DNA of 64,000 bases from Candidatus Eiseniibacteriota bacterium. GTDB lineage: Bacteria > Eisenbacteria > RBG-16-71-46. The notes beneath the pieces were generated by a model. That model worked only from the letters and a program-made list of their open reading frames with translations. It ran no database searches and was not told where the DNA came from. The stretch spans positions 1-64,000 of the forward strand of contig JANMQY010000107.1 of the NCBI GenBank assembly GCA_031370785.1. Reading direction: 5' to 3'. Below, piece by piece: positions 40,988 through 50,225 of the stretch (positions within the stretch are counted from its first letter, which is position 1; each line of letters starts with the position of its first letter). The position numbers and the translations under genes were made by a program.

Positions 40988-41440
40988 ATGAGCGAAACCA
41001 ACAAGGTAGTCGCACACTTCCTCGACGGCAGTGTGCTCAAGGGCACGACCTGGGATTTTTCGCTCGGCCGCCCGGCCTTCCACGTGTCTCAGCCTGGATC
41101 GGACGACCTCCAGATCGTCCGCTTCGAGCTGTTGAAGGCGGTGTTCTTCGTCAAGGAGCTCGCCGGACACCGCGAGCGCCGCGACTTCCCGCGATTCGAG
41201 CGTGGCAACACCGAGAAGACCAAGGGCACCAAGGTCTCGGTTCTCTTCAGGGACGGCGAGCTGCTTTGCGGCTACGCTCCCGCCTTCGCGCCCGCGCCGG
41301 CCGGCTTCATCCTGTCGATCGCGGATCCGCGCAGCAACAATCTGCGCGTGTACGTTCTGTTCCATGCGACGAAGGAGATTGGCGTCGGCCCCGAAGCCGA
41401 AGCGCTCGTGCGCCGGTTGCGACGCACCAAGGCGGCATAG
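40988..41440 (+). CDS. DUF6982-like hypothetical protein
   Basis: NKVVAHFLDGSVLKGTTWDF, LKAVFFVKEL, VLFRDGELLCG, ADPRSNNLRVYV. Confidence 0.7.
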   Translation: MSETNKVVAHFLDGSVLKGTTWDFSLGRPAFHVSQPGSDDLQIVRFELLKAVFFVKELAGHRERRDFPRFERGNTEKTKGTKVSVLFRDGELLCGYAPAFAPAPAGFILSIADPRSNNLRVYVLFHATKEIGVGPEAEALVRRLRRTKAA

Positions 41441-41473
41441 GCGCGCCGTTCGCGCACTGCGGCTTCGAGCGCA

Positions 41474-41513
41474 GAAACAAAAGGGCTCCGGTTCGGCTTC
41501 GAACCGGAGCCCT
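41474..41513 (-). terminator. Strong intrinsic terminator
   Basis: Perfect 14-bp stem agggctccggttcg/cgaaccggagccct, 4-nt loop, followed by TTTGTTT on minus strand. Confidence 0.85.
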
Positions 41514-41590
41514 GAGACTTTCGGTTTTGGCGACGCTGGGTTACCCCGCTTCGGGGCACTTCCCGGTTCGTCACTGCAGCCGGAGATCCC

Positions 41591-41635
41591 CTACGAGGAC
41601 GTCACCTCCACCGAACCCAACAAATTCTTGTCCAA
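41591..41635 (-). CDS. Putative 14-aa micropeptide MDKNLLGSVEVTSS
   Basis: TTG start directly after AAGGAGGTGATCCA; TAG stop. Confidence 0.4.
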   Translation of the reverse strand: MDKNLLGSVEVTSS

Positions 41636-41773
41636 TGGATCACCTCCTTCTCGGGGCCTACCTGCCACGGAGGGACCCAACCCTCCCGATCCCGTTGGCC
41701 GCCCGAGCCTTCAGGACCGCGCGCGATTCTTTCGCGCGAGCGAACTGCGCGGAGTTTCTGCGGAGCCGGACGA

Positions 41774-41788
41774 GTTGTCAATGACAAC
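41774..41788. promoter_or_regulatory. Perfect palindrome GTTGTCA-A-TGACAAC overlapping a minus-strand TTGACA -35
   Basis: 7-1-7 inverted repeat; TTGACA at 41776-41781 (minus), 17 bp from GAAACT. Confidence 0.55.
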
Positions 41789-41832
41789 CTGGTTGTGGCA
41801 ACCGTCCCCGGGGCCAGTTGCACGAAGGTCAG

Positions 41833-42357
41833 CTAGTGCGTGTCGCCCGCCGTCTTCACGTTCGCGAGATCGGCGCTGTTCAGGAACAGCCCGCGCGAAC
41901 CGCGCACCATGGTCGCGGTCCCGTTCAGCGTCACGGTCTTTCCCATCAGCGGGATCATCGCGGTCTTGATCTCGACCTGTCCGTCACGCCGCGGATGGTG
42001 CTCTTCAGGAAACAGGAAATAGACCATCTTTGCGCTGGTCAGAAGTCCAATCGGCTGGCCGTTTCCGGCGCACTTGGCTGCGCACGCCTCGTGTCCCGCA
42101 CCGTGCTTGCCGAGCTCGAGGTAACACGACACGTCGATGACTTCGCCCGTGAGGCTCACGCGCTTTCCGCTCGCGAGCACCTTGCGATGTTCCGCCGTGG
42201 TTGCGGCCTCGTAGGTGGTCGCGGACCACTTCGAGCTGTCGTTCGCCTTGCCCGCCTGTTCCTTGGCCCACGCCGACCGCGTCGCGCTGAAAGCCAGCGC
42301 CCCGAGCAGCGTCACGCCGACGACGAGCGCGCTCACCATCTCTCGCTTGATTCTCAT
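41833..42357 (-). CDS. Secreted hypothetical protein with Cys/His motif
   Basis: GGAGG RBS, signal peptide, LTGEVIDVSCYL...HEACAAKCAGNGQP. Confidence 0.75.
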   Translation of the reverse strand: MRIKREMVSALVVGVTLLGALAFSATRSAWAKEQAGKANDSSKWSATTYEAATTAEHRKVLASGKRVSLTGEVIDVSCYLELGKHGAGHEACAAKCAGNGQPIGLLTSAKMVYFLFPEEHHPRRDGQVEIKTAMIPLMGKTVTLNGTATMVRGSRGLFLNSADLANVKTAGDTH

Positions 42358-50150: not shown

Positions 50151-50225
50151 TGGAGGCGGCACCCGGATTCGAACCGGGGAATAAGGGATTTGCAGTCCCT
50201 CGCCTTACCACTTGGCCATGCCGCC
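50151..50225 (-). tRNA. tRNA-Cys(GCA)
   Basis: GGCGGCATGGCCAAGTGGTAAGGCGAGGGACTGCAAATCCCTTATTCCCCGGTTCGAATCCGGGTGCCGCCTCCA: cloverleaf, anticodon GCA, U73 discriminator, encoded CCA. Confidence 0.97.

Follow-up and report, generated by a model that had tools for sequence, protein, structure and literature searches.

The locus and the parts of the element

Within a 64,000-nucleotide stretch of a Candidatus Eiseniibacteriota genome (contig JANMQY010000107.1, positions 1 to 64,000; the window), the gap between an upstream same-strand open reading frame (ORF) of no known family and a downstream convergent DUF6982 gene holds a conserved, folded and probably stand-alone small RNA gene of about 270 nucleotides (nt), located at 41746-41474 on the minus strand and present in a single copy in the genome. 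Read along that strand, it carries a first Shine-Dalgarno sequence (SD1), a UUG start, 14 codons with a second Shine-Dalgarno sequence (SD2) near the stop, and a terminator. All the features listed in an earlier note on this DNA were found where it had placed them. The parts are as follows.

41776-41781, minus strand: -35 hexamer TTGACA; a script finds TTGAC 130-137 nt 5' of SD1 in 15 of 20 family loci, and the alignment adds a 16th
41753-41758, minus strand: putative weak -10-like hexamer, 17 nt past the -35 hexamer; A/T is kept thereabouts in most homologs, and the consensus scan made no call
41474-41746, minus strand: predicted transcript of about 273 nt, from promoter and terminator geometry and a 240-nt RNA-library contig at 41509-41748, such contigs having no strand or exact ends
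41720-41738, minus strand: hairpin P1; 6 of 6 pairs changed on both sides, 80.5% paired
41687-41719, minus strand: hairpin P2; outer stem 73% paired
41701-41704 with 41654-41657, minus strand: pseudoknot PK1, between the P2 loop and bases just 5' of SD1; 74% paired, its register shifting between lineages
41669-41686, minus strand: hairpin P3; stem 99.6% paired, 6 of 6 pairs covarying
41675-41680 with 41536-41541, minus strand: long-range pseudoknot PK2, between the P3 loop and bases past the stop, from partner-swap tests
41636-41650, minus strand: SD1, a 15-bp complement of the 3' tail of 16S ribosomal RNA (rRNA), abutting the start codon
41591-41635, minus strand: 14-codon ORF MDKNLLGSVEVTSS, TTG start, TAG stop; 19 of 20 family loci have 14 codons and one has 13
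41602-41609, minus strand: SD2 (GGAGGTGA), complementary to the 16S tail over 8 bp, with the end of its GGAGG 11 nt 5' of the stop
41520-41615, minus strand: 3' domain with P5 (41610-41615 with 41520-41525), P6 (41600-41606 with 41529-41535) and inner hairpins; P5 and P6 seal the 3' half of the ORF
41475-41513, minus strand: intrinsic terminator, a 14-pair stem (41513-41482) and U tail; 11 of 12 pairs changed on both sides, 94.5% paired
41774-41803, no strand: two promoter palindromes outside the conserved element, in a region unconserved in the alignment

A DNA search returned a match in 20 of 36 same-family genomes and in none of 24 more distant ones. One of the 20 (L020) is a hairpin upstream of the element; in the 19 left, SD1, the TTG start and a closed ORF are kept without exception, the ORF having 14 codons in 18 and 13 in one. 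The consensus promoter scan called no site at the locus and the terminator count was not above that of shuffles (1 found; shuffle mean 1.6), so that it is conservation that supports both the promoter and the 14-bp-stem terminator. The palindromes are present as described (a 7-1-7 palindrome enclosing TTGACA at 41774-41788, and a second at 41791-41803), while an operator role for them did not hold up: the 7-1-7 form occurs in 1 of 20 family loci, this copy alone, and the genome holds 2237 such palindromes, 23 of them AT-rich.

Part of the stretch was present in 20 of the 22 sequencing runs listed (18 recorded as RNA; 11 studies). One run (X3) yielded a 240-nt contig at 41509-41748, agreeing with the predicted start near 41746, and two others (X7 and X6) yielded pieces within 41512-41709. 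In three of the four runs examined, which had been chosen by the element's sequence, the RNA-library contigs are confined to the element and the flanking genes are uncovered. The element is probably transcribed on its own; the strand-less 240-nt contig fits the span of the minus-strand transcript that had been proposed, as a hint and not a proof.

Pairing, folding and the reading frame

As the assembly has no 16S gene, the 16S tail was taken from same-family genomes. With this tail SD1 (41650-41636) forms 14 Watson-Crick pairs and one G.U pair (-27.4 kcal/mol), and its variable middle base is A or G, either of which pairs with the 16S U. Against the single-stranded tail, SD1 ranks first among the 6481 GGAGG sites of the genome, and tied fourth once three more 16S bases, which we take to be part of helix 45, are included. 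The duplex of SD2 (41609-41602) with the tail amounts to -15.0 kcal/mol, and its GAGGTG is invariant in 41 of 41 sequences. On the plus strand the complement reads as a 14-nt identity to the 16S 3' end which, in an assembly without a 16S gene, might suggest chance or the decayed remains of an rRNA operon; the bases past the complement are unlike 16S, the element has no rRNA match, and the strand opposite to the match carries a conserved promoter, ORF and terminator, leaving this doubt, already raised in the earlier note, with a negligible probability.

The RNA folds better than shuffled sequence (z = -5.7; 0 of 200 shuffles equally good). A 63-pair structure is 87.6% paired on 41 long-form sequences, the same ones from which it was drawn and, being kin, not independent, with 38 pairs changed on both sides and slid controls reaching at most 56%; the homologs and covariation that the first reading had asked for in relatives were both found. 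By this comparison P3, P6 (98.3% paired) and the terminator are firm predictions, and P5 is 81.3% paired. In the partner-swap test, none of 200 swaps equalled P6 in the long, short and Ms_IGR-5 sets (described below; decoys, 41 of 200), and none of 1000 equalled PK2, either in the 41 sequences or in 18 further Acidobacteriota loci, where a script chose the loops and erred in four of them; restricted to the 22 closest sequences, the PK2 test had no power. P5 was unsupported in the short forms of the host's own phylum (196 of 200). Taken as sequence evidence, the covariation speaks for a helix that closes over SD2 and for a pseudoknot joining distant bases on either side of the ORF. PK1, with 24 of 1000 swaps and one control at 20 of 1000, has modest support; the hairpin-rich leader of the earlier note is seen in P1, P2 and P3, while its ctcggg...cccgag hairpin is better read as PK1, formed from a hairpin loop. 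An alternative helix competing with P6 is 82% paired and covaries (2 of 500 shuffles), more weakly than P6 and confounded by relatedness. An internal anti-Shine-Dalgarno sequence 3' of the stop was rejected, as 984 of 1000 swaps were as good and the bases read better as a local hairpin.

Among 21 close homologs, the proportions of synonymous (pS) and nonsynonymous (pN) change are 0.384 and 0.33 in codons 2-7, and 0 and 0.038 in codons 8-14, where no synonymous change occurs; since pN is about equal to pS in the first part and synonymous change is missing from the second, the constraint is on the RNA and not on the protein. Variants of ORF length between families differ by whole codons. SD2 is read, depending on the family, as GAG-GTG, GGA-GGT or AGG-TGC, and the in-frame stop is still found at 11, 10 or 12 nt, the C-terminal residues changing wholly with this shift of frame. 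A scan of the genome collection with a pattern that required both SDs and a nearby stop gave at least 120 loci. Among the 120 matches listed, the frame is open in 117, SD1 and SD2 are 38-43 nt apart in 101, the stop lies exactly 11 nt past SD2 in 106 (the pattern allowed a range), and the start is non-AUG in 93 (CTG 28, ATG 26, GTG 25, ACG 17, ATT 10, TTG 10, ATC 3). Because this pattern demanded the very features that are counted, less circular sets of loci matter. In loci of Ms_IGR-5 (RF02471, an actinobacterial small RNA validated in M. smegmatis) that were found by Rfam (30 fetched, 3 unpublished ones excluded, 27 analysed, 25 scored), the 11-nt spacing is present in 24 of 25 and the stop lies at 10-12 nt in all 27; in Acidobacteriota loci found by our own model, itself trained on that spacing, it is present in 17 of 19. 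As a control, GAGGTG lies 10-12 nt 5' of the stop in 4 of the 1851 long ORFs of the genome. The stop itself is preferentially TAG or TAA, TGA being used in 8 of 91 loci (four overlapping sets in which the stop was not a criterion), and 1149 of the 1851 long ORFs of the genome end in TGA; this preference possibly reflects release factor 1 or structure.

These data bear on two explanations centred on the ORF product or on the neighbouring gene. An mRNA expressing a functional 14-residue peptide at low level through its ribosome-binding site (RBS) is favoured by an ORF that is always intact, by the recurrence of a D/S-rich start and an EV(A/T) end, and by the peptides RreB and RreR, described as conserved within their own clades (PMC5711450); we consider it improbable in view of the substitution pattern in codons 2-7 and 8-14 and of the C-terminus that is replaced when the SD2 frame shifts. 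A leader that acts in cis on the gene that follows, as an attenuator does, or the mRNA of a type I toxin would fit the short ORF, the hairpins, the terminator and the partly buried RBS, a leader peptide and a type I toxin having both been suggested in the earlier note; SD-like sequences are described near the stops of attenuator leader peptides (PMC5737721). With such attenuators the element shares a short ORF, an RNA remodelled by translation and an SD-like element that can hold the terminating ribosome, whereas it has a fixed terminator and neither a regulated downstream gene nor a regulatory codon run. The downstream gene is convergent here; at 41 loci it lies on the opposite strand in 21 and on the same strand in 17, and was not found in 3, and neighbour families differ from genome to genome in either orientation (60 of 78 candidate proteins scanned), so that no conserved same-strand downstream gene was found for a leader or stalling peptide to serve. 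Type I toxin mRNAs encode a hydrophobic, conserved toxin peptide and are opposed by an antisense antitoxin; the peptide here is polar, short and under no detectable selection, it is encoded in a single chromosomal copy, and no antitoxin was noticed, none having been specifically searched for. The leader and toxin readings are largely refuted and, in our estimate, very improbable. What stands of the small RNA module first proposed is a self-contained, conserved, covarying and probably transcribed unit built on the 16S-tail complement.

Known relatives and distribution

The genes rreB and rreR are small mRNAs of Alphaproteobacteria whose function is unknown (Hahn et al., RNA Biol 2016, PMC5711450). 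Like the element, which has a conserved -35 hexamer and terminator and is probably transcribed on its own, they are stand-alone small structured transcripts with a near-identical extended SD reaching a non-AUG start and with lineage-variable neighbours, and rreB also has 14 codons. They differ in having a complement of 16-17 bp (15 here), a GTG start (TTG here) and a length of 165 nt (about 270 here), whereas the element adds a folded 5' domain of about 95 nt and SD2, encodes an unlike peptide and belongs to another phylum; the rreB ORF as printed in the supplement, an oligonucleotide sequence compared by eye, has no SD2 and is unlike that of the element. Against the rre definition of at least 16 nt of 16S complement up to the start codon, the 15 bp, one G.U pair included, fall one short, and by inspection GTG-starting relatives can extend the pairing further; the short ORF that in rre genes follows directly on the extended SD, and most often begins with a codon other than AUG, is found here (TTG, 14 codons). 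Two rreR-like loci (L067 and L148; 20-26 bits) have 18 codons and an SD2-like GGAGGTG 7 nt 5' of the stop. For rreB itself, co-sedimentation with 30S, weak translation and an unstructured peptide are reported, and its half-life rises from 10 to 37 min once the start codon is lost (PMC5711450).

An Rfam scan of the window at gathering level returned a tRNA alone, and on 41300-41950 at E up to 10 two chance matches and no family for the element. With Ms_IGR-5 the element has in common SD1, an ORF of 12-14 codons, GAGGTG 11 nt 5' of the stop and a covarying P6, to which it adds the 5' domain and PK2, with a different 3' interior. The Ms_IGR-5 threshold (45 bits) is not reached, no match being found on 41300-41950 at E up to 10 or in genome G000 at E up to 0.1. 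In one genome of the same family, a short Ms_IGR-5-like form (L155, E 6e-4) replaces the long form. In a core model, Ms_IGR-5 members score 12.8-30.7 bits and decoys at most 17.7, the two ranges overlapping; these scores aside, we regard the long form as probably homologous to Ms_IGR-5 because the two have their geometry and P6 in common and occur as alternatives within one phylum. Matches to this family occur in 35 of 121 Actinomycetota genomes, 16 of them over the cut-off, in a tally that includes four unpublished genomes. In 18 of the 19 loci examined, CC2171 (RF01867, a Caulobacter small RNA) has the same SD1, a start 7 nt past GGAGG and a short ORF, and the 5' end of its consensus, nearly that of rreB, looks rre-type; it differs in its ORFs of 21-32 codons, its fold and the lack of a fixed SD2. 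The element's locus gave no match at the CC2171 threshold (75 bits) or below it, and matches occur in 19 of 121 Alphaproteobacteria genomes. Among 20 distant loci, one exceeds the Ms_IGR-5 threshold and several match CC2171 below threshold. The possibility that a known Rfam family would account for the element thus applies in part: this copy has no match, while its relatives in other lineages match Ms_IGR-5, CC2171 and rre. In five CC2171-like loci of Alphaproteobacteria (L196, L197, L202, L205 and L207), E-Q-P and four further residues precede the stop of the ORF, which gives these loci a second fixed element where SD2 would otherwise stand.

A full-text literature search turned up no publication connecting rre with CC2171 and Ms_IGR-5, and none that reports an SD2 at the stop; this absence is weak, and the original Ms_IGR-5 and CC2171 papers could mention the ORF; the accessible portions of the TRIC-seq preprint, the Shell 2015 supplements and Sawyer 2021 yielded no passage on this RNA.

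Within the host phylum, the SD1-SD2 pattern is present in 134 of 201 genomes (the unpublished G038 included), singly in 131. A control with the reversed pattern gave 21 matches in 18 genomes, and 5 of the 30 loci retrieved proved to be chance occurrences; the real number is therefore a little under 134. The loci of the wider scan belong mostly to Acidimicrobiia and Thermoleophilia, with others in Acidobacteriota, Krumholzibacteriia, Planctomycetota and further groups. In Acidobacteriota the pattern occurs in 15 of 121 genomes, about half by chance as judged by eye, and our model finds 19 of 121 at E below 1e-8; in Planctomycetota 17 of 61 match the model at E up to 0.1, each of them weakly, and in Alphaproteobacteria the two-SD pattern occurs in 5 of 251. 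Matches in Deinococcota (27 of 81 genomes) were set aside: outside the seed genome, control counts were equal and the matches resemble chance occurrences in coding sequence. So were viral matches, where the stop lies at 11 nt in 0 of 29 and at 10 nt in 2. Seven viral contigs (L299, L303, L312, L313, L315, L318 and L321) keep a 16S-tail complement in an AT-rich stretch that is not this element. In two SAR86 records (L044 and L045) the version is AT-rich; its 14 codons begin with ATT, and the stop follows SD2 by 7 nt. In one family, short forms (L187 and L189) lie directly 3' of the YchF GTPase gene, translation-related neighbours not being general.

SmpB, 6S and transfer-messenger RNA (tmRNA) are encoded at other loci in five of five genomes checked, and the element is neither tmRNA nor 6S. 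A substitute for tmRNA, suggested by the failure of ARAGORN to find one in G000, was dropped when Rfam found it (G000:C129:426-779, 181.7 bits). A link to loss of bS21 or HPF was likewise abandoned, as the host has bS21 and an HPF-family gene.

Elsewhere in the window, the upstream neighbour (41833-42357, minus strand, 174 amino acids) has no Pfam or NCBIfam match and shows a hydrophobic N-terminal stretch with several Cys and His residues. Directly past its stop, a G+C-rich hairpin (41797-41822) overlaps the second palindrome, with one similar copy on contig C24 and another in G010 (L020). A tRNA gene lies at 50154-50225 (minus strand), its anticodon GCA (Cys) assigned by alignment.

A proposed ribosome-bound mini-mRNA

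We lean, with modest confidence, towards a stand-alone rre-like mini-mRNA whose working part would be the RNA and the act of its translation and not the peptide, its fold and lifetime reporting the state of translation; on this view it would sense the translation state, or act as a timer for it, and would not be a bulk sink. Once the element is transcribed on its own, as the RNA-library contigs indirectly suggest, SD1 would pair with the whole free 16S tail and load a 30S subunit tightly, as shown for rreB, and the weak UUG would slow 70S formation and escape. Elongating ribosomes would then have to open P5, P6 and probably PK2, which by covariation seal codons 8-12. The freed SD2 could re-pair with 16S at the stop: with the stop in the A site, 8 nt separate it from the P-site codon, nearly the 7 nt that SD1 keeps at initiation. 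By analogy with in vitro work, in which an SD 9-14 nt 5' of the stop slows mRNA release 50-fold (PMC5737721), such re-pairing may slow the release of the post-termination complex. The RNA would thereby spend its life ribosome-bound, with a fold and half-life dependent on initiation stringency and recycling capacity.

Several points weigh against this proposal. Ribosome binding and translation of this RNA are proposed by analogy with rreB. The SD used in vitro sat 3 nt nearer to the stop than SD2 does. GAGG lies 11 nt 5' of the stop in only 2 of 18 CC2171-type loci, and rreB has no SD2, so that the SD2 step is not universal. SD2 is also one strand of P6 and its constraint may be partly structural, the GAG outside the helix arguing for more. 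When this copy is folded without pseudoknots, P5 and P6 have a probability of about 0 and most of SD1 is buried; either the pseudoknots stabilise P5 and P6, or two folds exist. As to transcription, one run (X1) gave a 48-kb DNA-like contig over the region, and the contigs, which come from relatives in runs selected by this sequence, have no strand or defined ends and record presence only.

Ranking next is ribosome parking or protection of the 16S tail, to which we assign a rather low probability: the RNA would hold 30S subunits, or else one ribosome at SD1 and another some 40 nt away at SD2, and guard the 16S 3' end in slow growth. An SD1 that spans the whole free tail as the strongest site of the genome, weak starts, the SD1-SD2 distance noted above and one copy per genome across the phylum all agree with it. 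Against it, 20-fold overproduction of rreB left growth unaffected and ribosomes far outnumber rreB (PMC5711450), the host already has its HPF-family gene and bS21, and a pure sink needs no frame-conserved ORF. Of the 30S-sequestering RNA put forward in the earlier note, 30S binding is retained as the best analogy, while bulk sequestration is argued against for rreB.

Less likely still is a trans-acting structured small RNA or a protein-binding RNA in which a bound ribosome merely shields and matures the molecule, as at 5' stabilising SDs, where a bound ribosome shields the RNA. Its complex covarying folds would suit such a role; rreB yields a 60-nt processing product (PMC5711450), and Ms_IGR-5 and CC2171 were detected as discrete small RNAs, uncharacterised in the accessible parts of these sources (10.1101/2022.01.24.477521, 10.1101/2021.12.14.472595, PMC8079986, PMC10454040). 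The invariant bases are nevertheless those of SD1, the start, SD2 and the helix partners, with no conserved free seed, and for shielding alone an in-frame stop at constant spacing from SD2 would be unnecessary.

Returning to the mini-mRNA reading, we tentatively extend it to a possible multi-phylum class of single-copy housekeeping 'ribosome-handling' RNAs comprising this RNA, Ms_IGR-5, CC2171 and rre, in which the two-SD branch would anchor the ribosome where translation starts and again where it stops, a pseudoknotted ring enclosing the ORF, and serve as a dedicated sensor, test substrate or parking template alongside tmRNA and HPF. The rre genes have been described in Alphaproteobacteria only and without a function (PMC5711450); the same RBS hallmark is now found on a conserved micro-ORF in Candidatus Eisenbacteria and kin, Acidobacteriota and Actinomycetota, together with a new feature, a second SD whose spacing from the stop is fixed and which persists despite the change of frame across it. 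Ms_IGR-5, catalogued as non-coding and an orphan in M. smegmatis and Streptomyces, becomes a testable ribosome-binding mini-mRNA; to judge by family membership, IGR-5 of M. smegmatis and SLIV_16488 of Streptomyces lividans have the two-SD core. To judge from its sequence, the element can be seen as a more elaborate form of this known, unexplained kind of ribosome-binding mini-mRNA, one that would grip the 16S tail at the start and the stop of its ORF, and the position of SD2 at the stop points to termination and recycling as part of the mechanism.
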